DNA of 13,487 nt from Thermoplasmatales archaeon SW_10_69_26. GTDB lineage: Archaea > Thermoplasmatota > SW-10-69-26. The notes beneath the pieces are model-generated. The model was not told the origin of the DNA and ran no database searches. It saw only the letters and a program-made list of their open reading frames with translations. A program made the position numbers and the translations under genes. Below are positions 396 to 13,487 of this stretch, piece by piece. The stretch's first letter is position 1; the number at the start of each line of letters is the position of its first letter. The DNA lies in assembly GCA_003009755.1 (NCBI GenBank), contig PXUB01000007.1:46941-60427 (forward strand), read 5' to 3'.

Positions 396-1415
396 ATGTT
401 GCGACGGGCAGGCGTGGTGTTGCTGGCGTTCGCCTTGGTCACGGCCGGCTGCGTCGGGACGCAGGCTCCCGAGGACGATAGCGAGGCCAGCGAGGAGGAA
501 CTGACCGCACAGAACGCCTCCCCGACGGCCCCACCAGCCGAGGGCGAGCGCGGGCTCGACGAACCGCCGACGCTTCGCCAGGGTGAATGGTGGACCGTCG
601 AGCTGCGAAGCGACGCCTTCAACGTGGAATCCGAGGCCACGATCGTCAACGCCGGCATGAAGGACGGCCGCTACATGATCGGCATGCCCGCCGACGACTA
701 CGCCGTGGAAGCCCTCATCCTGCACCTGCCGAGCATCGGTCCCGTCCAGCCGGACACGCTCGGCTACGAGAGCCACGACGTGCCCTTCGCGCCGGCCTCG
801 TTCCCGCTGCAAGAGGGCGAGACCTGGTCCACGGAGTGGTACACGGGCGAGCTCGAGGGCGAGGTCACCCAGGCCAACCCTGCGGAGGGGACGGCCGAGG
901 CCGAGCTCACCGGGGCCGAGAACGTCAACGTCACCTACGAGGCCGGGCTCGGCATCCCCACGTCGGTCGAGATCGACGGCTACGGCTCCTACGAGGTGAC
1001 CGACCACGGCTACGGCTTCGAGGGCGACGTCAAGGTGCCCTGGGAGCACGACATCGTGTTCCTCAACGGGCGCGTGGGCCCAGCCGCCGACACGAGCCTG
1101 CAGCCGGCGCCGCCCGTCGAGCAGATCCCCGTCGAGGGTGACTACGACGAGGCCGCGATCGCGCTGTTGATGGGCAACCTCGTCGTCGAGGGCCCGCCGG
1201 GCGTCTATCGCGTGTCCGCGGATGCGCCAAATGGCAACACCTACGAGGACACGTTCGTCGCGGAACCGACCGGCCCCCAGCTCAAGATCGTGCCCAGCGC
1301 CGTGCCCGACCCGGTCGGGACCTGGGACGCCGAGTACGAGGCCGGCGGGGCCGGCGTCGCCGCGATCGAGGGCATGGCCTACGAGGTCATCGAGCGCTCG
1401 CTCGGCGATGGATAG
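396..1415 (+). CDS. Acidic lipoprotein of unknown function (339 aa)
   Basis: Basic N-terminus, hydrophobic stretch and lipobox TAGC, then an acidic linker and a beta-rich body. Strong GC3 codon bias. Confidence 0.85.
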   Translation: MLRRAGVVLLAFALVTAGCVGTQAPEDDSEASEEELTAQNASPTAPPAEGERGLDEPPTLRQGEWWTVELRSDAFNVESEATIVNAGMKDGRYMIGMPADDYAVEALILHLPSIGPVQPDTLGYESHDVPFAPASFPLQEGETWSTEWYTGELEGEVTQANPAEGTAEAELTGAENVNVTYEAGLGIPTSVEIDGYGSYEVTDHGYGFEGDVKVPWEHDIVFLNGRVGPAADTSLQPAPPVEQIPVEGDYDEAAIALLMGNLVVEGPPGVYRVSADAPNGNTYEDTFVAEPTGPQLKIVPSAVPDPVGTWDAEYEAGGAGVAAIEGMAYEVIERSLGDG

Positions 1416-1456
1416 GCCCGCGAGGGCCGCCGGAGGGATCGCCTTCGAAGATCGCT

Positions 1457-1470
1457 GAAGACCCCTTATC
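1457..1470 (+). promoter_or_regulatory. Putative BRE/TATA promoter
   Basis: GAAGACCCCTTATC, with TTAT about 32-35 nt upstream of ATG 1501. Confidence 0.5.
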
Positions 1471-1500
1471 TGCCCGGCGGCCGCATGGTTGGGATAGACC

Positions 1501-2604
1501 ATGAGCCCGAACCTGCGACACCGGAGTTGGAGCCTGATCGCGAGCCTGCTGCTCGTCACGGCCGGCCTGGCCGGCTGCGTGCAGGAGGCCGAAGCCTCGA
1601 CCGGCGAAGTCTACGTCAAGGACGACGTCACCGACGAAGCCGAGGCCGTCCACGTCGAGTTCACGAAGGCCGAGATCCTGCCGGCCGACAGCAACGAGTG
1701 GGTGACGGTGTACGAGGGCGACAAGGAGATCGAGCTGTTGTCGCTGTCGGACGCCGACGCCCGCGAACAGCTGGCGGACTTCGAGATCGAGCCCGGCGAG
1801 TACGACCGCCTGCGTATCCACGTCGCCAACGTGACCGTCGACCACGAGAACGGCACCTCGGAGGAGCTCGTCGTCCACGGCAACATGGTGACCGTGGCCG
1901 AAGACATCAGCTACGAGCCCGGCGAGGACGTCAGCGTGCTGCTGGACTTCGACCTCGACGAATCAATCAACACGACCCGCGGCGAGTACACGCCCGTCGT
2001 GGGCGACCTGCAGCGCTCGGACGTCGATCAGGACGAGGACGGCGAGGCCGACCTCGACGACACCGACGACGACGGTGACGACACGCCCGACCACGTCGAC
2101 GACGACCGCGACGGCGACGGCCAACCCGATCTCCCCGCTCAGGCTCAAAGCTACGACAAGCGCGGCCTGAAGGGCGTCTGCACCGCCTGGGAGAACAACG
2201 ACCAGGGCCGCGAGAACGGCACCGTGGAGGAGAACGCGACGGCCTTCCAGTGGTTGCAGAACCGCTCGGCCGAGGCCGGCCAGAGCGTGGACGTCTACTG
2301 CGAGGAGACCACCTCCCAGGGCGCCCCCGACGAGATCGGGATCACGAAGGACGAGCTCCCCGAGCGCGCCCAGCAGGCCCTCGGCGACCGCCACCTGGGC
2401 CCGCCGGAGGACCGTCGCGGCCACGGTGACGATCGCTCGCAGGACCGCGGCGACGGCGACCGCGAGGCCGACCGCGGCGGCGACCGCGACCGGCGCGATG
2501 GCAACCAGACCCGCAGCGACGAGCAGGAGGACCGACAGCAGAGCGAGGACGAGCAGCGAAGCGACGAGCAGGAGACCAACCGCAGCGCCGAGCAGCAACC
2601 CTAG
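1501..2604 (+). CDS. DUF4382-like lipoprotein with DxDxD Ca-binding-type repeats, a two-Cys domain and a charged disordered tail (367 aa)
   Basis: Lipobox LAGC. DUF4382-like motifs (VYVKD, IELLSL, GEYDRLRI, VLLDFDLDESI). DVDQDEDGEADLDDTDDDGDDTPDHVDDDRDGDG segment. Eight N-x-S/T sequons. Confidence 0.8.
   Translation: MSPNLRHRSWSLIASLLLVTAGLAGCVQEAEASTGEVYVKDDVTDEAEAVHVEFTKAEILPADSNEWVTVYEGDKEIELLSLSDADAREQLADFEIEPGEYDRLRIHVANVTVDHENGTSEELVVHGNMVTVAEDISYEPGEDVSVLLDFDLDESINTTRGEYTPVVGDLQRSDVDQDEDGEADLDDTDDDGDDTPDHVDDDRDGDGQPDLPAQAQSYDKRGLKGVCTAWENNDQGRENGTVEENATAFQWLQNRSAEAGQSVDVYCEETTSQGAPDEIGITKDELPERAQQALGDRHLGPPEDRRGHGDDRSQDRGDGDREADRGGDRDRRDGNQTRSDEQEDRQQSEDEQRSDEQETNRSAEQQP
2515..2574 (+). 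repeat. 15-bp direct repeat AGCGACGAGCAGGAG (coding SDEQE twice)
   Basis: Copies at 2515-2529 and 2560-2574 in the low-complexity tail of the lipoprotein gene. Confidence 0.6.
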
Positions 2605-2729
2605 GCCGGATCGGTGAGCCCCGAGCAGGCCCGCCGGCGAGATCGTCGGCGGGCCCTCCCCCACCGCCCACGAAGCACAAGACCCACACGCCGCGACCGC
2701 ATCCCCCCGCCGACGCTCCCCTCACGATC

Positions 2730-3791
2730 ATGCCCTCCCCCACCCGACCTTCGCCCGCCCTCGCCCTCGTCCTGGCCCTCACCGTGGCCTTCGCACCAGC
2801 CCTGGTGCCCAGCTTGGCCACGTCCGCGCTGGCTCAGGAATCGGGCCCCGCCAACGGCGGCCCCGACAACGGCAGCCAGCGCGACGCCAACCGTTCCCAG
2901 GACCCCAACGGCAGCGACGACGGCGACCGCTCGGCCTCCGAGAGGCGCGGGACCGACGACGGCCAAGGCCACCGGTCCGACCGGGGCGCCGACGACCGCG
3001 GTCCCGACCAGGCCGGTCCGCCGGTCGAGATCGAGGATCGACGCGGCGGCTTCGCCACGCGCGCCGAGCCCGGTTCGCCCCGCCCCGAGGTGGCCGTCGA
3101 CGCCGCCAACGCTTCCGCCAGCGTCCAACGCGGGGACGTCCGCCCGCTCGACGTGCACCTCGACGAGGTGCTGGCCTTCGAGGACGGCGACGGCGACGGT
3201 GCCTACGACATCGGCGAGCGCGTGCTCGACCGGCAGTCCCTCCCCGAGGCGCCCGCCGAGATCCTCGTCACGGCGAACGAGACGCGCACGGCCGTCTACG
3301 AGCTCGGCGAGGAAGCGAGCCTCGAGCTCGTGTTCGACGTCTCCGCCGCCCACGGCGACGAGGTCGGCGCCAAGTTCGACGTCGAGGTTCACAACTACAC
3401 CTTCGCCGACGGCGAGGACGTCCACACCGCGCTCGGCAGCCGCATCCAGGTCGACGGCGGCCTCGAGCGCGTCGAACGCCAGGGACGCCCGGCCGTCGTC
3501 GGCGAGGCCGGCGACGACGTGGCCTACCTGTCCTGGGTTCAGAACGCGACCGTGGACGGTACCGACCACCGCGTCGGCTCCAGCGTCCTCGTCGACGCCG
3601 AGGAGCGCGACTCGGCCGTCGTCTACTGGGCCTACCCGCAAGGCGAGGAGATCGTGCACGATCCCGAGCTGGGCGTGAGGGACGCGGTCCGCGAGTTGGC
3701 CGGCAACCCGGGGTCCTTCGCCTTCGGCCTCGCGGTGACCACCACGATCCTGTTCGGCGGGTACGCGGTGCGGGCGAGGTGGAACCGGTGA
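2730..3791 (+). CDS. Secreted, C-terminally membrane-anchored glycoprotein (353 aa)
   Basis: Signal peptide ending ALA-Q, disordered D/R-rich linker, DGDGDG motif, KFDVEVHNYTF and YPQGEEIVHDP motifs, C-terminal TM helix with a basic tail. Seven sequons. Confidence 0.85.
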   Translation: MPSPTRPSPALALVLALTVAFAPALVPSLATSALAQESGPANGGPDNGSQRDANRSQDPNGSDDGDRSASERRGTDDGQGHRSDRGADDRGPDQAGPPVEIEDRRGGFATRAEPGSPRPEVAVDAANASASVQRGDVRPLDVHLDEVLAFEDGDGDGAYDIGERVLDRQSLPEAPAEILVTANETRTAVYELGEEASLELVFDVSAAHGDEVGAKFDVEVHNYTFADGEDVHTALGSRIQVDGGLERVERQGRPAVVGEAGDDVAYLSWVQNATVDGTDHRVGSSVLVDAEERDSAVVYWAYPQGEEIVHDPELGVRDAVRELAGNPGSFAFGLAVTTTILFGGYAVRARWNR

Positions 3792-4051
3792 GCCTCGTGC
3801 TCAACCTCGCCGTCGCCGCCTTCGCGTTGACCGCGATCGCCATGACCGGGCTCGCCGGGGTCGGCTGGCGCCGCTCCGGCCAGGCCCGCATGGGTGGCCT
3901 GACCGCCGGGTTCGGGCTCTTCGCCGTCGCGGGCTTGGTCACCGCGTGGTGGCTGTTCGCCCGCGAGGATCTGGAAACGCTGTTGACCGTGCACACCGCC
4001 GTCACCGCCGCCGGCCTGCTGACGATCTACCTGGCCGCCGTGAAACGTTGA
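3788..4051 (+). CDS. Small 3-TM membrane protein (87 aa), of the type often found beside archaeal wHTH regulators
   Basis: GTG 3788 overlaps the upstream TGA (GTGA coupling). Three hydrophobic helices with a WRRSGQARMxxLxxGF pattern after TM1. Confidence 0.8.
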   Translation: MSLVLNLAVAAFALTAIAMTGLAGVGWRRSGQARMGGLTAGFGLFAVAGLVTAWWLFAREDLETLLTVHTAVTAAGLLTIYLAAVKR

Positions 4052-4184
4052 CCTCTCGCCGGCCGGAGACCACCGAGGAGAGATCCAAGCGTGGAACCGA
4101 AGCGGTCAAGCGGGAGAGCGCCGTCGCTGGCCTCGCGATCCCGGCCGCAGGCGCCCGCTTGAGGCCAACGCGCCGTGAACCGCC

Positions 4185-4823
4185 ATGTCCACCGCCGATG
4201 CATCGACGACGGTCCGCTCCTCTCGCCCGTCGGCCGCAGCCGAGGGCCCGCGCCTCATCGAGCTCGCGATCCTGGCGATGGCTGCCGGCGACGATGCCAC
4301 GACGCGTCGCCGCGTGTACGAGTGCGTCAACGAGCACCCCGGGCTGCACCAGCGGGAGATCGCCCGCCAGCTCGACCTCGACGCCAGCCACGCCGAGTAC
4401 CACCTCTACCACCTGGCGAAGGCCGGCATCCTGCGCACCGAGGAAACCGACGGCTACAAGCGCTACTTCGTCGCGCTGGACCCCAACGAGGCGGTGCCCG
4501 AGGGCGCCGTCCAGCCCGAGGATCGCCCGTGGCTGGGCCTGTTCCGTCAAAAGCGCCCGCTGGAGATCGTGGCCCACCTGTTGCAGGAGGGCCCCAGCCA
4601 GATGGGCCCGATCGCCGACAGCATGGACATCGCGAAGAGCACGTTGAGCTACCACGTCGACAAGCTCGAAGACGAGGACGTCGTCGAGCGCGTGCGGGAC
4701 GGCAACCAGCGCTACCTGCAGCTCACCGATCGCGAGCGCACGATCCGCCTGCTCGTCCAGCACGAGCCGCCCGACGATCTCGTCGCCGGGTTCCAGGACC
4801 TGTGGGAGGACGTCGGGTTCTGA
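4185..4823 (+). CDS. Double winged helix-turn-helix (ArsR-like) transcriptional regulator
   Basis: Two wHTH units: RRRVYECVNEHPGLHQREIARQL...EYHLYHL...YKRYF and EIVAHLL...IADSMDIAKSTLSYHVDKL...V. The start may instead be ATG 4278. Confidence 0.9.
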   Translation: MSTADASTTVRSSRPSAAAEGPRLIELAILAMAAGDDATTRRRVYECVNEHPGLHQREIARQLDLDASHAEYHLYHLAKAGILRTEETDGYKRYFVALDPNEAVPEGAVQPEDRPWLGLFRQKRPLEIVAHLLQEGPSQMGPIADSMDIAKSTLSYHVDKLEDEDVVERVRDGNQRYLQLTDRERTIRLLVQHEPPDDLVAGFQDLWEDVGF

Positions 4824-4836
4824 CGGGCGAGAGGGA

Positions 4837-5001
4837 TCAGGCGTCGTCGGCCTCGTTCTCGTCGTCCTCTCGGTGCTCCCGCAGGATGCGCTTGGCCCTC
4901 CGCCGCATCTCTGGATCAGCCGTCGTGGTGAGACGGCCGGGTCGGAGGAAGCCCTCGGGGAGCTTCCGGCGGCCCTCGTCGTCCGACTCCGTCATCGCCA
5001 T
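4837..5001 (-). CDS. 54-aa charged small protein (MAMTESDDEGRRKLPEGFLRPGRLTTTADPEMRRRAKRILREHREDDENEADDA)
   Basis: Translated by hand. GGGAGG Shine-Dalgarno about 10 nt upstream, directly after the stop of the 5022-5555 gene. Acidic termini. Alternative start ATG 4995. Confidence 0.6.
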   Translation of the reverse strand: MAMTESDDEGRRKLPEGFLRPGRLTTTADPEMRRRAKRILREHREDDENEADDA

Positions 5002-5021
5002 CACTATTGCCCTCCCTGGAC

Positions 5022-5555
5022 CTATAAGGTTGTCGCCGCGACGAGGAAGAAGCCGAGCCCGGCGACCAGAACGAGCAACGAGGCCCGGAACCGTCGAGCT
5101 GTGCGTTCCAGCAGTTCTTCCTCTCTGGCGGCCGAGATTCGGTACGTCCGGACCAGCTCCGCCTTGAGCTCGTCCCCGGTGACGTCGAAATCGAGAGCTC
5201 CCGCGAGCGTTTCGGCGTCGACGCCCCCGGCCGTCCCCCGTTTCAGGTAGGCCGAAACCCCGATCACGGTCGAGGCGACCATCGAGGCGAAGCCTGCGAT
5301 CATGGGGAGACGGACGAGCGGCGACCCTCCCAACGACTCAGCCTCTTGGAAGAGAGAAACGATCGGTACGAACAGCCCCAGCATCAGGACGTTGAACCGG
5401 ACGATGCCCTGGATCCGGTCGTCCATCTCCGAGATCGCCTCGGAGAGAGCATCGACCCTGTGCTTCGCCTCTTCGTAGAGGAGCTGCACCGCATCCTCTG
5501 TCGGTCGGTGTCCTCCTTGACCCACGTCGTCTCTTGTCGCCGCTGTTCCCTTCAT
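5022..5555 (-). CDS. 3-TM membrane protein (about 177 aa) with helix-TM-TM-loop-helix-TM layout
   Basis: Start moved to ATG 5555 (or GTG 5525), because the upstream ORF-track extension overlaps DinB and is junk-like. Three hydrophobic segments, preceded by LYEEAKHRVDALSEAISEMDDR. Confidence 0.75.
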   Translation of the reverse strand: MKGTAATRDDVGQGGHRPTEDAVQLLYEEAKHRVDALSEAISEMDDRIQGIVRFNVLMLGLFVPIVSLFQEAESLGGSPLVRLPMIAGFASMVASTVIGVSAYLKRGTAGGVDAETLAGALDFDVTGDELKAELVRTYRISAAREEELLERTARRFRASLLVLVAGLGFFLVAATTL

Positions 5556-5617
5556 CTTTCTCCGGGGACGACGCTGACCTCGGCGGCTGTACGCGGCCAA
5601 CCCGCCCTCTGACCTGG

Positions 5618-6140
5618 TCAGGGGTGGGCCGCCGGCTCGGCCTCGTCGGTCGTCAGCTCTGTCCCGTACCGGGGCCAGTCGACCGGCGGGGGTTCCACGC
5701 TCTGCGACCAGAGGATCGAGAGCAGCTCGCCGCGGTGCCACTGTTCGTGGGTGAAGATCGTGAACAGCGCCTCCTCGGGCGTGAGGGCCTCGCGTTCGAA
5801 GCCCTCGATCTCGACATCGAGGTGGCGAAGCCGCTGCATCTCCTCAGGATCGAGGTCGTCGACGACCTCGTGCGTGTAGGCGCGGACCGCCTGGAGGTGG
5901 TCGATCACGGGCTCGGTCCAGCGGTCCTTCGAGGGGCGATCCCACGCGAAGCTCTCCCCGGCGATCAACCGCGCCCAGCTCTTCTCGACGTTGCCGACGT
6001 GCGTCGGCGGCCAGCGGGGTGTAGAACGAGCACTTGTAGTCGCGCGTCAACAGCTCTGGGTCCATCGAGCGCAGCTCGGGGAACCACCGATCGTTGAGCT
6101 GATCCGAGAAGACCAACAGCCGCTTGGCCGAGAGGGACAG
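5618..6140 (-). pseudogene. DinB/YfiT-superfamily protein, frameshifted at about 6005 and lacking a canonical start
   Basis: The N-terminal frame (LSLSAKRLLVFSDQLNDRW...SFYTPLAA) joins the C-terminal frame (THVGNVEKSW...HEQWHRGEL...PPPVDW) across a stray base at 6005. The His triad typical of DinB is present. Reconstructed length is about 174 aa. The likely start position is CTG 6140. Confidence 0.75.
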
Positions 6141-6204
6141 GGCTCGGGAGGCGCGCTGGCGAGCATCGAGCTTCGCCCCCGAACCGACGGCGGCCGCCGG
6201 GCGC

Positions 6205-7116
6205 TCAGCGCCGGGCTCGGACGATCGCGACGTGGGGCGCCCCGACCCGGCTGTCGGCGTCGACGAGGCCCGCGCCGGCGAGCGCGTCGGTCAACCGCTC
6301 GTGGAGGTCGGCGGCCAGCTCGGCCTCGCCGGCCTCCCGCTTGCGCACGGTCGCCGCCAGCACCGCCGCCAGCCAGCTGGCCGTCAACCGGTCGCTCTCG
6401 CGGGCCGGAGGCAGCTGCACGGGCGAGCCCACGACGCCCTCGGCCAGAAGCTCGCCCAGGTCGGCGACCCCAGCGGCGGCCAGCGTCTCCCGGTAGCCGG
6501 ATCGTCGTCGCCAGGCGGTGACGTCGGGGAACCGGACCGTCCGGCGGGGGCGCTTGGCGGGTGGCCACTCGCCCCAGGGGCGGGTGACCTCGGCCGAGGC
6601 GAAGGAAAGCTGCCAGGCCTCGGGGTCGGGGCGGTGGAAGACGAGCGAACCGCCGAGCGAGGGCAAGCGGGCGTCGGCCAGGATCCGCCTGGGCGGGGTC
6701 ACGTTGCCGGCCGGCGCGATCGCGGGCCGCCGGTGCAGCAGGTCCCAGTGGTAGACGTTGAAGCGAGCGCGCGCCAGCGGCACGTCGCCCGCCACCGCCG
6801 GCAACGGGCCCGGGCGCCGGCGAGCCTGCAGCAGGCACACGCGGAGGTCGGGCGGGTCCGTGGACGTGTATGTGACGACCAGCAGGTCGGCCAGCTGGCT
6901 GCGTCGCTCGTCCGCAGGCAGCTCGTCGTGGGGCCTGAAGTCGACGAAGGCGCGCTGGCCGCGATGCGTCTCGGCGGCGAGGTCGCCGGCTTCCCCGATC
7001 GCGGGCAGGGCGGCCATCCAGGCCTCGAGCAGCTCGTCCTCGTGGAGGCCGGGCTCCCCGGCGGTGGCTTCGCTGAAGGCGTCGGCGAGGGGCTGACCCG
7101 GCGGTGTCTCGCTCAC
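6205..7116 (-). CDS. Hypothetical protein with a degenerate PD-(D/E)XK restriction-endonuclease-like motif set (303 aa)
   Basis: ETH...AFVDF...SQLADLLVV...RVCLLQAR...FNVYHWDLLHRRP resembles the H...ELxDLL...QAK nuclease-like pattern. Divergent from the 7245 gene. Confidence 0.6.
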   Translation of the reverse strand: MSETPPGQPLADAFSEATAGEPGLHEDELLEAWMAALPAIGEAGDLAAETHRGQRAFVDFRPHDELPADERRSQLADLLVVTYTSTDPPDLRVCLLQARRRPGPLPAVAGDVPLARARFNVYHWDLLHRRPAIAPAGNVTPPRRILADARLPSLGGSLVFHRPDPEAWQLSFASAEVTRPWGEWPPAKRPRRTVRFPDVTAWRRRSGYRETLAAAGVADLGELLAEGVVGSPVQLPPARESDRLTASWLAAVLAATVRKREAGEAELAADLHERLTDALAGAGLVDADSRVGAPHVAIVRARR

Positions 7117-7210
7117 GGTGTGGCGCGCGGATGGGCGAGGGCCCTCATGCTTCCGGCGGCCGATGGATCGGTCGACGACGCTCCCACAGCTCGTTCAAGG
7201 GAGCTCACGC

Positions 7211-7220
7211 GAAGCCCTTT
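7211..7220 (+). promoter_or_regulatory. Putative BRE/TATA promoter of the 7245 gene
   Basis: GAAGCCCTTT lies 25-34 nt upstream of ATG 7245. Confidence 0.4.
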
Positions 7221-7244
7221 GCCGGCCCCCGGCGATCCCCGACC

Positions 7245-8543
7245 ATGGCGAGAGGGAGAGGCAAAGCGGCTGCCGGTAGGGCGACGAGCGGAGCATGGTG
7301 GACGGTTCTGGCGGTCGCCGCGTTGGTGGTGACCGCTGGGATCGCCGGACAGGTGGGGGCGATCAACCCCACCGACGACGACGCTGGGTCCGGCCGCGAC
7401 GCGGGCGATCAGCCGGCGACCGCCGTCCCGATCGAGCCGGGCACCCACGAGGGTCGTGTGACGGAGACGGTCGACACGCGCGACCACTACAGCTTCGCGG
7501 CCGACGAAGGGGACGTGGTCGTCGTCACCGTGCCCGATGGCGGCGCGCGGCTGTGGATCGGCCTGGTCGGTCCCGACGGCGAGGAGCACGCCTACGGGGC
7601 CGACTTGGAGGGCGTCTGGCTTCCGATCCCGGAGGCCGGGACGTGGACGGTGCTCGTCGAGCTGACGGGCGCCAGCAGCGATCTGCCGGCCGCTGCCGTC
7701 GACTACACCATCGAGCTCGAGCGCTCGCAGGACTACTACGTCCACGAGCGCACCGTCGCGGATGGCTGGTACACCGCCGAGGCCGCCGTCGACGAGCCGG
7801 GTCGGTTGATGGGCTACGTGCGCGGGCAGTCTCCGCAGGACCCCGGGGAAGCCTACGGGAACTTCGGCGCGGTCGCCTCCTGGAAGGCCAAGCCCGAGGG
7901 CGGCCGAATCTTGTCCTGGAGTGCGCACGCGTACGGGCACGGCGCCACCTCCGAGGACTCTCCGTTCGCGATCGCCTCCGAGATCCTCCCCGGCGACGAC
8001 GGGGCCCAGGCCGCCTCCTTCAGCCCCTGGAGCGAGGGGCAGATCCTGGACAGCTATGCCGAGGCCCAGATGCGCTTGACGGCGCTCGAGGCGCCCAGCG
8101 AGCACGGGCTCCGGGTGGCGATCGCCTCGACCTCGCCGCTGGAGGTTCGCGAGGCTACCGGGTCGGAGGTGGTCCACTGGACGACCAGCGACAACGAGGA
8201 GGAGACGGTCCTGCAGACCGGCGGCGTCGTCGCCACGGAGGCCGCCAACCTCACCGTCCCGACCGACCACGGCCTGCGCGGGGCTTTCTACACCTACGAC
8301 GCAGGCGGCGAGATCCACACGCCCGACAGCGACTGCCACGAAGCTGGAAGTGGCGAGCTGTTCGCCGACCCGCAAGCCGGATCCTGGGAGTTCCGCCTGA
8401 ACCCGGTGCAGGACGTCGGCTACACCGAGCACGTCTACCTCGTCGCGGCCGACATCCCCCAGCTGGGCACCTTCGACTGGGGCGGCAACCCTCCGCTGGC
8501 CACCGTGAACGGTCGCCCTTGCGGCCAGGCGGCGGGGAGCTGA
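7245..8543 (+). CDS. Secreted protein with an N-terminal PPC-like (pre-peptidase C-terminal) beta-sandwich (432 aa)
   Basis: Start moved from 7104 to ATG 7245, which gives a clean signal peptide. DDDAGSGRDAGD...G...DTRDHYSF...GDVVVV...GTWTVLV...YTI is a PPC-like pattern. Confidence 0.8.
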   Translation: MARGRGKAAAGRATSGAWWTVLAVAALVVTAGIAGQVGAINPTDDDAGSGRDAGDQPATAVPIEPGTHEGRVTETVDTRDHYSFAADEGDVVVVTVPDGGARLWIGLVGPDGEEHAYGADLEGVWLPIPEAGTWTVLVELTGASSDLPAAAVDYTIELERSQDYYVHERTVADGWYTAEAAVDEPGRLMGYVRGQSPQDPGEAYGNFGAVASWKAKPEGGRILSWSAHAYGHGATSEDSPFAIASEILPGDDGAQAASFSPWSEGQILDSYAEAQMRLTALEAPSEHGLRVAIASTSPLEVREATGSEVVHWTTSDNEEETVLQTGGVVATEAANLTVPTDHGLRGAFYTYDAGGEIHTPDSDCHEAGSGELFADPQAGSWEFRLNPVQDVGYTEHVYLVAADIPQLGTFDWGGNPPLATVNGRPCGQAAGS

Positions 8544-8651
8544 CCGCGCCCCGCCTAGGTCTGTCACCCCTGACCGGTAACACCGATCGCGAAGCCGCCC
8601 TCACGATGAGGTTTTCGCTCGGTCCCCACGGCCTGCGGGGGAGGTCGTACC

Positions 8652-8822
8652 ATGATGAGCAAAACCGAAGCCATACATGAATGCCCCGATTCTCCTTCGG
8701 CTGTTTCGGGTGGAGGCGTAAGGGAGAGCCTTCAGCGCGTGAAGCTAACGACGTCTACGGGTCCGATACCGACTCGTTCAGGACAGTTGGAGAGCCCTGA
8801 ACCGGGCATGGCTGGGAGGTAG
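8652..8822 (+). CDS. Possible 56-aa ORF or interrupted gene start upstream of the recombinase
   Basis: GGGGAGGT SD then ATG 8652, open to TAG 8822. Codon usage is atypical (AAA, ATA, TCT, CTA), so coding status is doubtful. Confidence 0.25.
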   Translation: MMSKTEAIHECPDSPSAVSGGGVRESLQRVKLTTSTGPIPTRSGQLESPEPGMAGR

Positions 8823-8826
8823 TTGC

Positions 8827-9711
8827 GTGGCGGGGTCCCTGACGGGACCGCAAGCTCGCTGGGAGGGGGACCAAGCGAAGGCTGCCGGGTATATCCGATA
8901 CAGTACGATCGACCAAGACCACGAGCGCGAGACGGGTGTCGACGCCCAGCTTGAGAGCATCAAAGAGCACTGCCGCCAGCAGGGCCACGAGCTCGACCGG
9001 GTCTACAAGGACGTCAAGTCGGGCCGCAACGTCGACCGAGCTGAGTTTTACGAGCTGCTCGACTGCGTGGCAGACTACGACGTCCTCGTCACGCGCGAGA
9101 TCTCGCGCTTCGGTCGTGACAAGGACGGCGTCAGCCAGGCCTATCTCATCCAGAAAGCGCGCGCCGCCGGCGTCATCGTCGAGACCACGGACGGAAAGGC
9201 GTTCGACCTTGAGGACCGCTTTGATCGGGCCTTCTTCAAGATGCTCGGCATCATCGCCGACCTCGAGGTCGGGTCGCTCGAGGAGCGCGTCCGCGAGGGC
9301 AAGCGCGAGGGCGCGAAGGCCGGCTACTGGGTGAGCGGCACGCCGCCAACCGGATACGAGACCGAGGGACCCCAGGGCCAGAAGGTGCTTGTCCCGAACG
9401 AGAACGCCGCCTACATCCGACAGATGTTCGAGCGGTACGTCCAAGGCGAGAGCATGCGGGATCTCGCCGCCTGGTTCCGCTACGCCGAGGCCGACCTTCC
9501 CTCCTCCCAGCCCTCGATCGGCAACCTCATCCGAAACCCGGCGTACAAGGGCAAAATCACCTGGAAGGGCGAGATCAACGAGGGCCAGCACGACGGGATC
9601 GTCAGCGAGGCGCTCTGGGAGGCCGCCCAAGACATACGCGAGGGCCGCCGGCGGACCTACCAGTGCTGGGACAAGGGCCTCGACGATGACGGGGAGAACG
9701 GCTCAGGGTAG
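8827..9711 (+). CDS. Serine recombinase/integrase (resolvase catalytic domain plus recombinase domain, no zinc-ribbon C-terminus; 294 aa)
   Basis: YIRYST catalytic Ser motif, DVKSGRNVDR, SRFGR, PPTGY, IRNPAYKG and HDGIVSEALWEAAQ. GGAGGT SD 6 nt before the GTG. Confidence 0.92.
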   Translation: MAGSLTGPQARWEGDQAKAAGYIRYSTIDQDHERETGVDAQLESIKEHCRQQGHELDRVYKDVKSGRNVDRAEFYELLDCVADYDVLVTREISRFGRDKDGVSQAYLIQKARAAGVIVETTDGKAFDLEDRFDRAFFKMLGIIADLEVGSLEERVREGKREGAKAGYWVSGTPPTGYETEGPQGQKVLVPNENAAYIRQMFERYVQGESMRDLAAWFRYAEADLPSSQPSIGNLIRNPAYKGKITWKGEINEGQHDGIVSEALWEAAQDIREGRRRTYQCWDKGLDDDGENGSG

Positions 9712-10008
9712 CTTGGCGAGCACGACGATGTCGTCCTCGAAGGCGCGGCCGACGTAGACGTCGGCGGGGCGCTTGAGCTCGTCGTCGAGCTGTTCGGTCG
9801 CCTTCTCCCCGCTCTCCCACTCGACGGTGATGCCGTCGGGGTTCTCGACGACCTCCCACCAGCTCGGGCCGGCGAGGACGAGCACGCGGGCGCCCTCCCA
9901 CGAGCTGGGGGCTCGCGCGACGCCGGCGCTGTTCGCTCGGGTGAGCTTGACGGCGTCGACGGGAATCTTGTCCGTCCCCGCGGGCTCGTACTCCTCTCGG
10001 GCTGGCAC
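9703..10008 (-). CDS. Small beta-rich protein with two DUF2080/AbrB-like repeats (101 aa)
   Basis: VKLTRANSAGVARAPSSWEGARVLVL and KRPADVYVGRAFEDDIVVL. Its stop overlaps the recombinase end by 9 bp. Confidence 0.65.
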   Translation of the reverse strand: MPAREEYEPAGTDKIPVDAVKLTRANSAGVARAPSSWEGARVLVLAGPSWWEVVENPDGITVEWESGEKATEQLDDELKRPADVYVGRAFEDDIVVLAKLP

Positions 10009-10034
10009 GAGCCCCCGTGAGGGCGAGGATGGGC

Positions 10035-10313
10035 TTAGTCGCTTGGGTCACGGACGAGGATGGCCTCCTCGCCCTCGAGGCCCTTCGCGATGTAGAGCTG
10101 CGGCGGCCCGGTCCCGCCCCAGGGCGTGGCCGTGTGCTCGTAGGCGACGTCCGCGGTCACGGTGACCTGGTCCTCGTCGACGTCGACGTGGATCGTGTAG
10201 TCGCCGTCGGGCACGAGCACGTGGATCGGGTCGCCCTGCCAGTCGGTGGGAGCGTACACGCGCCGGCTGGCGGGCACGGTGCGTCTCTCGACTGCGCTGC
10301 CGGTGACGGTCAC
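10035..10313 (-). CDS. Small beta-rich protein with two DUF2080/AbrB-like repeats (92 aa), probable paralogue of the 9703 gene
   Basis: RRTVPASRRVYAPTDWQGDPIHVLV and EHTATPWGGTGPPQLYIAKGLEGEEAILV. GTGA overlap with the upstream micro-ORF. Confidence 0.7.
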   Translation of the reverse strand: MTVTGSAVERRTVPASRRVYAPTDWQGDPIHVLVPDGDYTIHVDVDEDQVTVTADVAYEHTATPWGGTGPPQLYIAKGLEGEEAILVRDPSD

Positions 10314-10405
10314 GCGCCTCTCTCCTCGAGGCGTTGGTCGATCTGCTCGAACACGGGCCGCAGCTCGCTCGCCGGGCTTCCTCGGCGCCCGCTGCTATCC
10401 GGCAT
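10310..10405 (-). CDS. 31-aa micro-ORF (MPDSSGRRGSPASELRPVFEQIDQRLEERGA)
   Basis: ATG 10405 overlaps the end of the zinc-finger ORF, and its TGA overlaps the next GTG. It exactly fills the gap in the operon. Confidence 0.5.
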   Translation of the reverse strand: MPDSSGRRGSPASELRPVFEQIDQRLEERGA

Positions 10406-10547
10406 CGTCCCCGACCCCCGCGAGGAGGCTGTCCAGGTGCTTCTCGCGGCACGCGCGGCAGAGGTCGCGTTCGCGCTGGCCGATCGTGATCGAGGCGGTC
10501 GGCGTGTTGCCGCAGGCTTCGCAGACGAGTTTCTCCTGCTCAGGCAT
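10395..10547 (-). CDS. 50-aa zinc-finger microprotein (CEAC...CRAC)
   Basis: MPEQEKLVCEACGNTPTASITIGQRERDLCRACREKHLDSLLAGVGDDAG contains two CxxC pairs. Overlaps both neighbours. Confidence 0.7.
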   Translation of the reverse strand: MPEQEKLVCEACGNTPTASITIGQRERDLCRACREKHLDSLLAGVGDDAG

Positions 10548-10620
10548 CCTCGGGCGCCTCCACCTCGGAGGCGGCTTCGACCTCGGCGCTGCCCTCCAGC
10601 GTCACGCGGAACCGAGGCAT
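10540..10620 (-). CDS. 26-aa micro-ORF (MPRFRVTLEGSAEVEAASEVEAPEDA)
   Basis: TGATG overlap with the nuclease stop and ATGCCTGA overlap with the next gene. Contains a VEAxSxxEA pattern reminiscent of DpnD/PcfM-like small proteins. Confidence 0.5.
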   Translation of the reverse strand: MPRFRVTLEGSAEVEAASEVEAPEDA

Positions 10621-11813
10621 CAGGCGTCCCTCCGTTGGATGTACGTGTACCCGTTGCGGGTCTGCTTCTCCTCGAGGCAGGCGGACAGCGCGTTCCCGTG
10701 CGCCTCGAGGTCGGGCGTGTCGATGGCTTCGAGCGCGTCCTGCAACCGTTCTTCGTCGAGCCGGGTCTCGGTCCCGATCTCGATGCCCTCGATCCCGGTC
10801 AGGCCCAGGTCGTCCAGCCGCTCGGCGAGGCCCTGCTCGTCCGTCACGGTCGCAGTCGGCACGTCCTCTCGATACGCGTCGAGGTTCTCGTCCGTGTGTT
10901 CGTCGAGGAGCTTGCGCGCCTTCTCGACGTCGAGCTCCTGCTTCGTGCCCGGGCTGTTGTAGACGGCCTGGTACGGGCCGACCACGATGCTGTCCTCGAC
11001 GGTCTTGGCCTGGATCTCGTGGATTTTCTCGCGCTTCTCGTCGTAGGCCTGCTCGTGCTGTTCCTTCTGCTCCTTGGCCCAGCCCGCCTCCATGACGAGC
11101 TCGTGCAGGTCCTCGGGCGCCTCGACGAGATCGTCCAGCGCGGCCTCATCCGAGGTAACCTCGTCCGTTGTGGAGCCATCCGGCTCCCAGGTCCCGGCCA
11201 CCATGGCGCGCACCATCTGACCGTACTCCTCGTAGGCCTGCGTCATGCGCTGCCCGACACCGTCGCCGTCGAGCCGGATCGCCTCCCACTCGAGGCCGCG
11301 GCCGCCCCACCAGTCCACGATCAGGGTCTCGACCTTGTCGACGCCGAGCACCTCGCTCGCGGGGTTCCAGTCGCCGTCGGGCGTGCGGGCTTCGCCGCGC
11401 TCAATCGCCAGCGCGTAGAGCGCGAGCTGGTCGAGGTAGTCCTCCCGCTTGTCATCGGTGAGCTGGTAGCTGCTGCTCGTCTTCAGGTCCCGCAGCGCGC
11501 CGTCCGGCGTCAGACAGTCGAAGTGCCCGTGCCAGTACAGTCCACCGGTCTCGGGGATCTCCAAGCGGACCTCGGTCTCGCCGTTCGGCGCGTCCCCGTA
11601 CACGGTCTGGTGGAGCACCGTGCCCTTGGCGCGGGATCCCTGATCCTCGTCCTCGGGCAAGGGCTTGCCCCGGATCCGCATGCGCGTCAGAGTCGGGTCC
11701 CACGTCATGGTGCTGATGCCGAGGTGGTCGTCGTCGGGCCGCCCGGGATGCGTGTCCACCGCCTCTTGGAGCCGCTTGCGCGCGAAGTCGGGAGCCTCCT
11801 CAAGGATCCTCAC
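10620..11813 (-). CDS. RecB-type PD-(D/E)XK nuclease (phage recombination exonuclease-like) with coiled-coil C-terminal extension (397 aa)
   Basis: KGTVLH...EVRL...GHFDCL...DLKTS...QLALYA motifs. GTGA-coupled to the upstream ERF gene. Confidence 0.85.
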   Translation of the reverse strand: MRILEEAPDFARKRLQEAVDTHPGRPDDDHLGISTMTWDPTLTRMRIRGKPLPEDEDQGSRAKGTVLHQTVYGDAPNGETEVRLEIPETGGLYWHGHFDCLTPDGALRDLKTSSSYQLTDDKREDYLDQLALYALAIERGEARTPDGDWNPASEVLGVDKVETLIVDWWGGRGLEWEAIRLDGDGVGQRMTQAYEEYGQMVRAMVAGTWEPDGSTTDEVTSDEAALDDLVEAPEDLHELVMEAGWAKEQKEQHEQAYDEKREKIHEIQAKTVEDSIVVGPYQAVYNSPGTKQELDVEKARKLLDEHTDENLDAYREDVPTATVTDEQGLAERLDDLGLTGIEGIEIGTETRLDEERLQDALEAIDTPDLEAHGNALSACLEEKQTRNGYTYIQRRDA

Positions 11814-12739
11814 GAGGACCCACCCCCGAGTGTGGCCTTCTCCTTGAGACCCTGGAGCTTCTCGATCATCGCACCCGCCTCGTCCATCGTCCTCGGCTTG
11901 CCGCGCATCGCGTTGCTGTCGAATGGGTTCGCGTCATCCTCCATCTCGCCGGCGCTCGTCGGGACGCCCGCGTTGCGGCACTCCTCCCGCAGGTCTTGGA
12001 TGAACTCGAGCTGGGGCCCACTGGGGTCCTGCCCGGTCGACGACTGGGACTGCTGGGTGCCCTGCCCGCTGCCGGGATCGGCGTCGACCTCGACGTCCCC
12101 GCTCTCGAGCAACAGCATCTTCGACAGGGCGTAGCGGAGGAGCTGGGATTCGAGCGCGTAGTGGTGCTTGTCGCCGGCGTTCTCGTTCTCGCCGACGACG
12201 CGGCGGCCCATGCGGCTGTCGCCGTCGGTCAGGTAGACCTCCATGACGGCCGTCACGCACCAACGCTGGTTCCCGCTGCCCGTGGTGCCCGACGGCTGCT
12301 TATAGGTGTCGACGATGCTGCTGTGCACCCAGACGTCCGCCTCGGCCAAGGGTTCGGCGACGGCGCCGTTCACGTCGTCGTAGGTTGAGTACTCGTGGTC
12401 GATGTGGCTGTTGTACCCGCTCTTCGGGATCGTGCCGATGTTCTGGCGGGCCTCGCACACCTTCTCGATGAGCGCAGGGCTGGGGTCGCCGAGCGGCGTG
12501 CTGCCTTGGACGCGGAACCGCCAGGTCTCCTCGCCCTCGGGGCCCTGGTCCTTGCCCATGTCGAAGGGGCTGCTGGGCTTGGTCTCGGTGACCTGGACCT
12601 CGCGCACCGTGCGGCCGTCGACGGCTTGCAGGATGTCGTCGATGACCATCTTGGCCTGGCTCTGTGTGAGGCTCTCGCCTGCGTCGTCGATGTCGTCGGT
12701 CTCCCCGTCCGCGGGCGTGGCTTCTTCGGTCTCCGTCAC
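11810..12739 (-). CDS. ERF-family single-strand annealing protein (about 309 aa)
   Basis: IPKSGYNSHIDHEYSTYDDV...PLAE...GDK...A...LRYALSKML is an ERF-like core. Start moved to GTG 12739 (GTGA overlap, GGGGTGG SD). Confidence 0.85.
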   Translation of the reverse strand: MTETEEATPADGETDDIDDAGESLTQSQAKMVIDDILQAVDGRTVREVQVTETKPSSPFDMGKDQGPEGEETWRFRVQGSTPLGDPSPALIEKVCEARQNIGTIPKSGYNSHIDHEYSTYDDVNGAVAEPLAEADVWVHSSIVDTYKQPSGTTGSGNQRWCVTAVMEVYLTDGDSRMGRRVVGENENAGDKHHYALESQLLRYALSKMLLLESGDVEVDADPGSGQGTQQSQSSTGQDPSGPQLEFIQDLREECRNAGVPTSAGEMEDDANPFDSNAMRGKPRTMDEAGAMIEKLQGLKEKATLGGGSS

Positions 12740-12855
12740 GGGTCCACCCCCTGGCGCCAGCGAGGGTCGCTGCGGTCGAACAGCCACACGGTCTCGACCT
12801 GGAGCGTGGTCGGCGTGTCTTCCTCGAGCTCGCCGATCGCGTGCTGGCGTGCCAT
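12736..12855 (-). CDS. 39-aa micro-ORF (MARQHAIGELEEDTPTTLQVETVWLFDRSDPRWRQGVDP)
   Basis: TGATG overlap upstream, GTGA overlap downstream, GAGGAGGG SD. Confidence 0.6.
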   Translation of the reverse strand: MARQHAIGELEEDTPTTLQVETVWLFDRSDPRWRQGVDP

Positions 12856-13058
12856 CAGGCTCCCTCCTCGATGGGGATGAGGACGTGGATCAGGTCGTCC
12901 CAGAACGCCAGGTCGACCCCCTCTTCCCGCATGGTGCCCGTCTCGCCGAGCACGGCAAGCACGGCCTCGTGCTCGCCGCGGGCGATTTGGAGCTCGACGG
13001 CGAGCTCGTCGTGCCCGTGGTAGGGGCTCGGTTCGATGGAGCATCCGATGCTCGGCAT
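12855..13058 (-). CDS. Hypothetical acidic protein (67 aa)
   Basis: TGATG overlaps at both ends and acidic composition. Confidence 0.65.
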   Translation of the reverse strand: MPSIGCSIEPSPYHGHDELAVELQIARGEHEAVLAVLGETGTMREEGVDLAFWDDLIHVLIPIEEGA

Positions 13059-13297
13059 CAGGCGGCCCCCTGCTGGTAGTCGATGACCTCGAGGTTAACG
13101 CGCTCGTCGCCGCGCCCGGGTGTCTCGTCCCAGGCGAGGACGGCGGGGCAGTCGTCGCACGTGGCCCGGACGGAGATGACGTCGGGCTCGAGCTGCTCGC
13201 GGTCGATCACGCGGCAGGACTCGTGCAGGCACGTGTTCGGCTCGGGCGGCTTGAGCCGGCGTCGTTCGGCTCGTCGTAGGTTCGCGTCGGCGTACAT
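13058..13297 (-). CDS. Zinc-ribbon-like protein (CxH...CxxC; 79 aa), first gene of the operon
   Basis: CLH...CDDC pattern. GGTGA SD before ATG 13297. Confidence 0.7.
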   Translation of the reverse strand: MYADANLRRAERRRLKPPEPNTCLHESCRVIDREQLEPDVISVRATCDDCPAVLAWDETPGRGDERVNLEVIDYQQGAA

Positions 13298-13322
13298 CGG
13301 GTGTTCACCAGCGCCCCGGTGG

Positions 13323-13359
13323 CGCTACACTCTTGTAGCGACCGCCGCTACAAAAGTGT
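13323..13359 (-). promoter_or_regulatory. Operon promoter overlapped by a palindromic operator
   Basis: CGCTACA (13323-13329), TGTAGCG (13334-13340) and CGCTACA (13346-13352). A 13/14-bp inverted repeat spans 13327-13359, and a minus-strand TTTTGTA TATA-like element lies within its right arm. Confidence 0.7.
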
Positions 13360-13411
13360 TGCGTTGGCGGACGAGAGTCACCCTGCGAGGAGGAGAGGCT
13401 GCCTTCGTGAT

Positions 13412-13486
13412 TTACTCGTCGATGTTCCGTTCCGGATCGGCGTAGAAGGCGTCGAACGAGAGGTCATATCCCCGCCAAAGGACGAT
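13412..13486 (-). CDS. 3' end of a gene entering from beyond the window (...IVLWRGYDLSFDAFYADPERNIDE*)
   Basis: Open frame from the window edge to TAA at 13412-13414, with an acidic C-terminus. Confidence 0.5.
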   Translation of the reverse strand: MVLWRGYDLSFDAFYADPERNIDE

Positions 13487-13487
13487 C

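Follow-up and report, generated by a model that had tools for sequence, protein, structure and literature searches.

We analysed a stretch of 13,487 nucleotides (nt), hereafter the window, from the genome of Thermoplasmatales archaeon SW_10_69_26 (G000:C7:46941-60427; GenBank contig PXUB01000007.1), which reaches the 3' end of contig C7 and encodes a serine recombinase of 294 amino acids (aa) at positions 8827-9711. We consider that this open reading frame (ORF) encodes, more likely than not, a naturally compact serine integrase. The element that it probably inserted, and may also excise, is a head-tailed provirus with a size of 35 kb or more, and the host is a salt-adapted archaeon from halite. 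The genome (2.8 Mb in 49 contigs, ~69% GC) belongs to an archaeon, as an earlier reading of the window from its letters alone (the original prediction) had assumed, with the 16S gene scoring 1497.8 bits against the archaeal model and 1108.8 bits against the bacterial model. Sequencing runs that contain the window sequence are labelled halite metagenomes. Among the provirus proteins, 29 of 31 have an isoelectric point (pI) of 4.0-5.2 (the remaining two have values of 5.98 and 8.84), and this acidic proteome fits a salt-adapted host.

Domain architecture of the recombinase

The recombinase ORF starts with a GTG codon, has an intact frame and shows a coding-type GC content at third codon positions (GC3) of 0.87. 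Pfam profiles for Resolvase (PF00239) and Recombinase (PF07508), the latter of which corresponds to the recombinase domain (RD), matched residues 19-167 (E 8.2e-25) and 191-274 (E 4.3e-14), respectively, and no further Pfam domain was found in the protein at E <= 0.01. Only about 20 residues remain C-terminal to the RD, which leaves no space for a zinc-ribbon domain (ZD) plus a coiled coil (CC). A six-frame search of the whole genome for the zinc ribbon PF13408 found no match in the protein, on C7 or on C22, the contig to which we assign the other part of the provirus; the sole match was sub-threshold and located on C3 (E 0.016). Because the genome also yielded no second PF07508 match above threshold in a six-frame search, a split form of the enzyme is unsupported, and we rejected the possibility that a separate partner gene supplies the missing domains.

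The original prediction had described an enzyme with intact catalytic motifs that ends soon after the RD, has neither a zinc ribbon nor a coiled coil, and is encoded by an ORF whose stop overlaps a convergent gene, and all of these features were borne out. In an alignment of 15 sequences (A2), R24 and S26 are conserved at 90% or more and R71 and R94 are invariant, which indicates that the catalytic motifs are intact; in clade members P0014 and P0015, the RxGR motif is without its second Arg. The recombinase ORF and the convergent minus-strand ORF (9703-10008) have 9 nt in common, which include the recombinase stop codon (9709-9711).

Comparison with PHROG profiles gave a match to phrog_95 (integrase) at E 5.2e-59, which covers only positions 88-362 of the 651 in the profile, and a match to phrog_125 (invertase) at E 3.4e-25, which suggests that the protein is nearer to integrases than to invertases. 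An AlphaFold model computed from a 15-row alignment (mean predicted local distance difference test score 83.0, predicted template-modelling score 0.58) superposes over 285-290 columns on the N-terminal ~290 residues of three integrases (Bxb1, SPbeta and phiC31), and its RD superposes on 4kis and 6dnw over 121 residues with a root-mean-square deviation of 3.0. At the C terminus, the model features one helix (261-284) followed by a disordered tail, and nothing is left to build a coiled coil. Serine transposases of the IS607 type carry a MerR-like DNA-binding domain N-terminal to the catalytic domain; the catalytic domain here starts at residue 19 with no domain before it. The protein likewise differs from small serine recombinases, which have a C-terminal helix-turn-helix (HTH) and ~180-210 aa, in having an RD and 294 aa.

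Length and phylogeny of homologues

Judged by the lengths and phylogeny of its homologues, the 294-aa form is natural and not a truncation, as the original prediction had argued. A HMMER scan of 1.84 billion cluster representatives returned 17,024 matches at E <= 0.001. Ten of these had E <= 1e-30, namely the query itself and nine others, and all nine are 276-316 aa long; proteins of 450-570 aa first appear at approximately E 1e-28. A word-indexed search gave two relatives closer than these, P0003 (301 aa, 62% identity), which is encoded on a 36.8-kb contig, and P0004 (251 aa, 63% identity). The nearest homologues are therefore 251-316 aa long, and not the 450-550 aa that would point to a simple truncation. 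In alignment A2, the short proteins stop 0-30 residues past the last helix of the RD. One homologue, P0019, contains the beginning of a zinc ribbon and looks like a piece of a long protein.

We also placed the query in a FastTree phylogeny of 158 rows, which comprise the query, P0003-P0155 and four proteins from archaeal loci (P0002 was left out as identical to the query). The underlying MAFFT FFT-NS-2 alignment spans query residues 18-280, with 265 of 556 columns retained; the FastTree supports are local and rooting was by midpoint only. The query lies in nested sets of three rows (Shimodaira-Hasegawa-like [SH-like] support 99), five rows (98) and 15 rows (95). Thirteen proteins of the 15-row clade have 251-316 aa and the other two have 351 and 354 aa. 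The part that follows the RD reaches about 60 residues at most in this clade, whereas it exceeds 120 residues in 124 of 158 rows in the whole tree and in none of the 15. The two longer proteins, P0018 (351 aa) and P0024 (354 aa), end in tails of ~58 residues with small Cys/His motifs and no coiled coil, which may be zinc-ribbon remnants or an independent gain. Within the clade, the inner six members are acidic (pI 4.6-5.2) and the outer members are basic (pI 8.4-11.2), which suggests that the clade is not restricted to halophiles.

A tblastn search of GenBank phages gave 378 records, all below 60% identity (best 31.7%), and no archaeal virus was present among the 25 rows listed of the 378, which were all bacterial phages or uncultured sequences. 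Loci related to the recombinase (alignment A3) were found neither in a collection of genome contigs nor in one of metagenome contigs, and a collection of viral contigs gave one weak, unrelated locus.

Borders of the provirus

Upstream of the window are the usual host genes purH, ZPR1 and enoyl-CoA hydratase, and genomes of the same family retain the gene order and 65-76% DNA identity over window positions 564-6110, of which the last gene is a DinB-family gene. In three of the four family relatives that have both genes (G002, G003 and G004), this DinB gene of C7 neighbours the CHY-zinc-finger gene found at C22:48359-48709; in the fourth, G005, the two genes are on separate small contigs. The divergent layout in G003 predicts the order C7 (plus strand), insertion and reverse complement of C22, in which repeats at either end of this insertion would be direct. 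A 29-nt repeat is present at 8587-8615, which matches the reverse complement of C22:50359-50387 at 28 of 29 positions, the sole such match in the 2.8-Mb genome (blastn-short E 3.6e-7). The same sequence also matches the reverse complement of C22:50677-50701 at 23 of 25 positions.

Logan contigs from three halite runs of another study (X2-X4) are ~98-99% identical to the window over 5500-8615; X5, in which 0.15 of the words occur, was left out of this comparison. Record 14 of X2 (1390 nt) covers 7277-8615 and has another 51 letters that do not fit the window, and record 23 of X3 covers 8281-8615, where its match to the window stops. The identity between the core copies stops exactly at 8615 as well (alignment A4). 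Taken together, these sequence comparisons support the interpretation that C7 and C22 flank one locus and that the left border probably lies at 8615. A left border at ~6150, where similarity to the family relatives stops, was rejected because the X2-X4 contigs cross 6150 and continue to 8615, where the repeat lies; the ORFs 6205-7116 and 7104-8543 are thus host genes at strain level. Word depth is low to the right of ~8550 in X3 and X4, which we did not count as evidence because a lack of coverage in contig data is not informative.

With the border set by the 29-nt repeat and the divergence of the X contigs, the recombinase gene is located 211 nt inside the element, which agrees with the original prediction that a serine recombinase borders it. 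The only ORF in the spacer (8652-8822) has a GC3 of 0.56, compared with 0.87-0.94 in real genes. The provirus is intergenic, just past a terminator-like hairpin downstream of a host ORF. As had been noted from the letters, no tRNA is visible: ARAGORN found none in the window, and none is present in the provirus part of C22. Rfam gave no family in the window at E <= 1 or in C22:44-64 kb at the gathering score, and exact scans of the metagenome, viral and genome collections with a degenerate 25-nt att core gave no match.

The right end features a tandem direct repeat of 86-107 nt (C22:50280-50386 and 50599-50704; 94% identical, spacing 318 nt), each copy of which contains one copy of the att core and ~78 nt of host-side flank. 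These copies could represent either two attB-like sites or the trace of an earlier event. In our own reading of the sequences, the differences between attL and the inner copy flank the hairpin, which would put the crossover within the hairpin if the inner copy is the true attR.

Gene content and size of the element

Because the window stops at the contig end, most of the element is on C22. The provirus consists of window positions 8616-13487 (4.9 kb), a gap and C22:50388-80962 (30.6 kb), or at least 35 kb. Host genes (GNAT, CHY zinc finger and FAD/BBE oxidase) occupy C22 up to 50159, and a single block of plus-strand viral genes extends from ~53.6 kb to the end of the contig (80.9 kb). This one block contains genes for the terminase large subunit (TerL), prohead protease, capsid and tail (Table 1), the combination by which we classify the element as Caudoviricetes-like; the E-values of some structural genes are modest. 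Together with the ERF and exonuclease genes of the window, the head-tailed viral block substantiates the provirus-like element that had been proposed.

A related 35.7-kb contig (record 15 of X2) matches window positions 10384-10568 and 12726-13288 and runs ~31.3 kb past the window end. This length agrees well with the viral part of C22 (30.6 kb) and suggests that the gap is short. In this contig, 3,048 unrelated letters replace the ERF/exonuclease block (window 10568-12726), which looks like module exchange between related viruses. Virus-like regions with ERF, exonuclease or TerL homologues also occur on G001:C6 and G002:C49, and no PF00589 or PF00239 match of these two genomes lies on those contigs.

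The 3' end of the recombinase gene and that of its convergent neighbour form a segment, 9578-9725, that is single-copy in the genome. In the source sample, the corresponding X1 unitig has a depth of 23.2, compared with 8.7-9.0 in its neighbours, and carries A>G changes at 9630 and 9636. Homologue P0003 is 62% identical to the query overall but shows only one difference (I to M) in the last 41 residues. Either mosaic joining of related viruses or conservation of a functional element may account for this segment.

Probable integrase function and rival explanations

The genome contains a single PF00239 match, which is the 8827-9711 gene, and three PF00589 matches, on C2, C19 and C1, with none on C7 or C22. 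A scan of 28 viral-block proteins, a set that omits the 869-aa ORF at C22:61813-64422, found no recombinase family besides the RuvC-like junction resolvase, and no integrase-like ORF was found near attR, where the ORFs are without a family match or coding-type GC3. Consistent with the original prediction, neither the window nor the C22 portion of the provirus yielded a tyrosine integrase or any other integrase bounding the element. The usual position of an integrase gene is beside the att site. Based on this position, on its being the sole recombinase found and on knowledge of the family, we presume an integrase role, and that the 294-aa enzyme is the integrase of this provirus is our favoured and reasonably likely interpretation.

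Several observations weigh against this assignment. The provirus is in two assembled pieces, and the gap could conceal another recombinase; neither an empty attB nor a circular attP junction was directly seen. At the right end, the exact attR is ambiguous because the core occurs a second time (23/25), 318 nt further inside, and the shared core of 29 nt (28/29 between attL and attR) is long for a serine integrase. No dyad symmetry above that of shuffled sequences was detected in attL, attR or the reconstructed attP and attB (best 8/13; the maxima of shuffled sequences average 7.9). Non-proviral contexts are seen for short relatives from a different archaeal family (see below), and the architecture by itself therefore does not imply a viral integrase. 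Finally, the Listeria A118-type integrase LI binds DNA poorly when its ZD is deleted, and a form that lacks the CC was inactive on every site pairing tested (PMC3783163).

The best-surviving alternative, which we regard as unlikely, is that the protein is a viral DNA invertase or resolvase that flips a segment beside the tail-fibre gene or resolves multimers, with integration carried out by another recombinase or by host functions. This alternative draws on the same 99 nt being present at both gap-facing contig ends (Table 1): in the joined provirus, the copies form an inverted repeat around the unassembled gap, directly after the tail-fibre gene. By eye, the repeat comprises the last 7 tail-fibre codons together with the 3' end of a convergent gene on the minus strand, which extends out of the gap. 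The gap segment is possibly an invertible segment, which the recombinase might serve, and such segments are known in Mu, P1 and phiCh1. Gin, Hin and the resolvases, which belong to the same superfamily and have no ZD or CC, use identical sites of 26-28 bp, and an identical core of 29 nt in combination with the lack of a CC would suit a simple, non-directional recombinase of this kind. Moreover, a direct repeat of this length (29 nt) is more characteristic of tyrosine integrases, as a 2026 survey reports longer cores in tyrosine-integrase proviruses (average 43 bp) than in serine ones (PMC13626063). However, the tail-fibre ORF takes up just 22 nt of the repeat, and inversion would therefore leave its protein unchanged, no other recombinase was found in ~35 kb, and the integrase profile of PHROG outscored the invertase profile (5.2e-59 versus 3.4e-25). 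Furthermore, classical invertase genes adjoin their segment, whereas the distance of this gene to attL is 211 nt and that to the inverted repeat ~3.7 kb.

It is less probable still that the provirus is fixed and decaying and that the protein persists in it as a remnant, either inactive or domesticated. The absence of the second RxGR Arg from P0014 and P0015 would be in line with such decay, as would the duplicated att-like unit at the right end, which hints at past rearrangement, and the neighbouring host DinB gene, which looks frameshifted. Yet the recombinase gene has kept an intact frame with a GC3 of 0.87 and the catalytic residues S26, R24, R71 and R94, the viral module has a full set of open structural genes, and a close relative of the gene and virus is present in the same and other samples.

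We give least weight to the explanation that the right part of the window and the viral part of C22 are different elements, with the 29-nt match coincidental or a host repeat and the window element a smaller island: the C7-C22 join is unassembled, the core sits within an 86-107-nt unit that is tandem on C22 and so could be a host intergenic repeat, and the same 99-mer in the same orientation at both contig ends would also fit elements that share a module, but the 28/29 match is unique in the genome and occurs at the place and in the orientation predicted by the flanking synteny, the core identity stops exactly where other strains diverge, and the ~31.3 kb of the 35.7-kb X2 contig beyond the window fits the 30.6 kb of C22.

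Possible mechanism and comparison with known recombinases

If the 294-aa enzyme is the integrase, the serine-recombinase family offers a model for how it would act. Dimers of the enzyme would use the catalytic domain/helix E and the RD to bind near-identical core sites of virus and host, and two bound dimers would synapse. S26 would then cleave all four strands at the central dinucleotide, and half of the tetramer would turn 180 degrees before the strands are religated. In large serine integrases, the coiled coil distinguishes attP x attB from attL x attR. Because the enzyme has no coiled coil and 29 nt are common to all four sites, the reaction is probably reversible in itself, and its direction might be set by the expression level or by some viral factor. 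We propose, more tentatively, that enzymes consisting of a catalytic domain and an RD form a distinct minimal class. Such enzymes would recombine near-identical sites of ~29 bp in virus and host, and thereby insert archaeal viruses of the head-tailed kind (and elements of non-halophiles) without the ZD/CC device, with direction set by a separate factor or not at all.

The protein resembles large serine integrases (Bxb1, phiC31, SPbeta SprA and LI) in its resolvase domain with a Ser nucleophile, its long helix E and its mixed alpha/beta RD, as well as in the position of its gene at the provirus edge beside an att site. It differs from them in lacking the zinc ribbon and the coiled coil inserted in it, in its archaeal host and in its length of 294 aa, compared with the 486-596 residues of the full-length integrase chains that it matched. 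Large serine integrases use distinct attP and attB sites with only a short central core in common, in contrast to the flanking repeat of 29 nt described here. With small serine recombinases (gamma-delta/Tn3 resolvase and Hin/Gin), the protein shares the catalytic domain (sequence matches to PDB entries at E 6e-6 to 2e-4), a single DNA-binding module after helix E and sites that are probably identical on both partners. However, it has an RD of ~100 residues in place of their HTH of ~45 residues, is ~100 residues longer, and is encoded at a provirus border rather than at a transposon res site or an invertible segment. Like the tyrosine integrases of archaeal proviruses (SSV-, pNOB8- and SNJ2-type), it is associated with the presumed site-specific integration of an archaeal virus and with direct repeats of tens of bases, whereas it belongs to an unrelated enzyme superfamily, has no tRNA target and is encoded by an unsplit gene.

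In the current model, which is based on structures of the LI, phiC31, Bxb1 and SPbeta integrases, the zinc ribbon and coiled coil are the parts that recognise att sites and control directionality. A natural clade without both, found at the edge of an intact-looking provirus, raises the questions of how sites are chosen and how immediate re-excision is avoided. What is new here is an enzyme of the large-serine-recombinase lineage that naturally lacks both control domains and is located at the border of an archaeal head-tailed provirus. A full-text literature search, with subscription journals outside its coverage, found no description of a serine recombinase that has an RD but no ZD or CC, or of an archaeal provirus that uses a serine integrase. 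According to a 2021 review of archaeal tyrosine recombinases, archaeal serine recombinases have been seen in transposons and were never fully investigated, and integration in archaeal viruses has been studied for tyrosine recombinases only (PMC8371274); the provirus described here would add a serine integrase to that field. A 2014 paper mentions that a bacterial relative of one archaeal provirus has a serine integrase (PMC4158269). Should the minimal class proposed above be real, the provirus would represent the first case of an archaeal virus with a serine-integrase system, and its 294-aa enzyme would offer a scaffold for genome engineering. If active, so small an enzyme (fewer than 300 aa), with a site of ~30 bp, would also be practically interesting.

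Short two-domain relatives elsewhere in archaea

We searched 401 genomes of the phylum and found a match at E <= 1e-25 in 11, six of which belong to one family with small genomes. Members of this family (G211, G191, G370 and G217) encode Resolvase+Recombinase proteins of 262-286 aa that are 30-33% identical to the query, have the same two domains and size, and form a separate clade (SH-like 94-99). In contrast to the gene at the provirus border, their genes have housekeeping surroundings, near thermosome, Nre and Ppx genes, or lie near adhesin-like repeat proteins, and no recognisable viral genes were found within ~10 kb of them. The two-domain architecture is thus recurrent in archaea and not virus-bound.

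Table 1. Positions of features in the window (C7), on contig C22 and at loci of the small-genome family. Positions without a prefix refer to the window.
Feature	Position	Strand	Details
DinB-family host gene	5618-6116	-	End of the block conserved in family relatives
Last host ORF before the provirus, 479 aa	7104-8543	+	No confident family; GC3 0.88-0.89
attL core	8587-8615		29-nt direct repeat with a 5-bp hairpin plus T4, terminator-like
Non-coding spacer, 211 nt	8616-8826		P' arm; promoter presumed
Compact serine recombinase, 294 aa, presumed integrase	8827-9711	+	Catalytic domain followed by a long helix E and the RD; ZD and CC absent
Stretch of 148 nt, recombinase 3' end and convergent ORF 3' end	9578-9725		Common to a second element in the same sample
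ORF, 101 aa, convergent with the recombinase gene	9703-10008	-	No assigned function; GC3 0.92, pI 4.4; no Pfam/PHROG match
ORF, 92 aa	10035-10313	-	No assigned function; GC3 0.94; no Pfam match
PD-(D/E)XK exonuclease, 397 aa	10620-11813	-	PF12705, E 9e-5; phrog_2139, E 1.2e-4
ERF-type single-strand annealing protein, 325 aa	11810-12787	-	PF04404, E 9.7e-10; phrog_155, E 1.2e-16
ORF, 79 aa, first gene after the intergenic palindrome	13058-13297	-	No assigned function; GC3 0.90; no Pfam match
99-nt repeat	13389-13487		Identical to the last 99 nt of C22 (80864-80962), same orientation; nowhere else in the genome
RuvC-like resolvase	C22 viral block	+	phrog_159, 6.9e-24
ParB-like protein	C22 viral block	+	phrog_6218, 1.1e-41
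TerL	C22 viral block	+	phrog_2, 3.4e-24
Prohead protease	C22 viral block	+	PF04586, phrog_80
Major capsid protein (MCP)	C22 viral block	+	PF17236, 1.2e-4; phrog_25898, 7e-8
Head-tail adaptor	C22 viral block	+	phrog_442, 3e-25
Tail tube	C22 viral block	+	PF18906, 1e-7
Tail fibre with S74 chaperone domain	C22 viral block	+	PF13884, 5.6e-8
Short Resolvase+Recombinase proteins	L034:9615-10403 and 10413-11258; L035:8781-9638; L036:10519-11379		Tandem pair at one locus

Other features of the window

Inspection by eye revealed a near-perfect palindrome with ~13 bp per arm at approximately 13325-13360, upstream of the minus-strand ORF 13058-13297, which may be an operator or an origin. On the host side, the DinB-family gene (5618-6116, minus strand) is apparently frameshifted, as it has a 2-nt gap relative to its relatives and has lost their start codon. 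The X2 and X4 contigs have two additional single bases within this gene, at 6005 and 6007, and the gene could be either a pseudogene or the product of an assembly error. The adjacent 794 nt (4824-5617) contain no convincing gene and are single-copy in the genome. This segment is missing from relative G003, in which the two flanking genes adjoin each other, and one X4 contig bridges it with just 12 letters from 4823 to 5618; the segment is possibly a small insertion. At its left end (1-98), the window contains a dispersed repeat of ~98 nt, of which ~50 full or partial copies are found on many contigs, often near contig ends. Its word depth is in the hundreds or higher in all four metagenomes, and it looks like a family of intergenic repeats or of elements resembling miniature inverted-repeat transposable elements.

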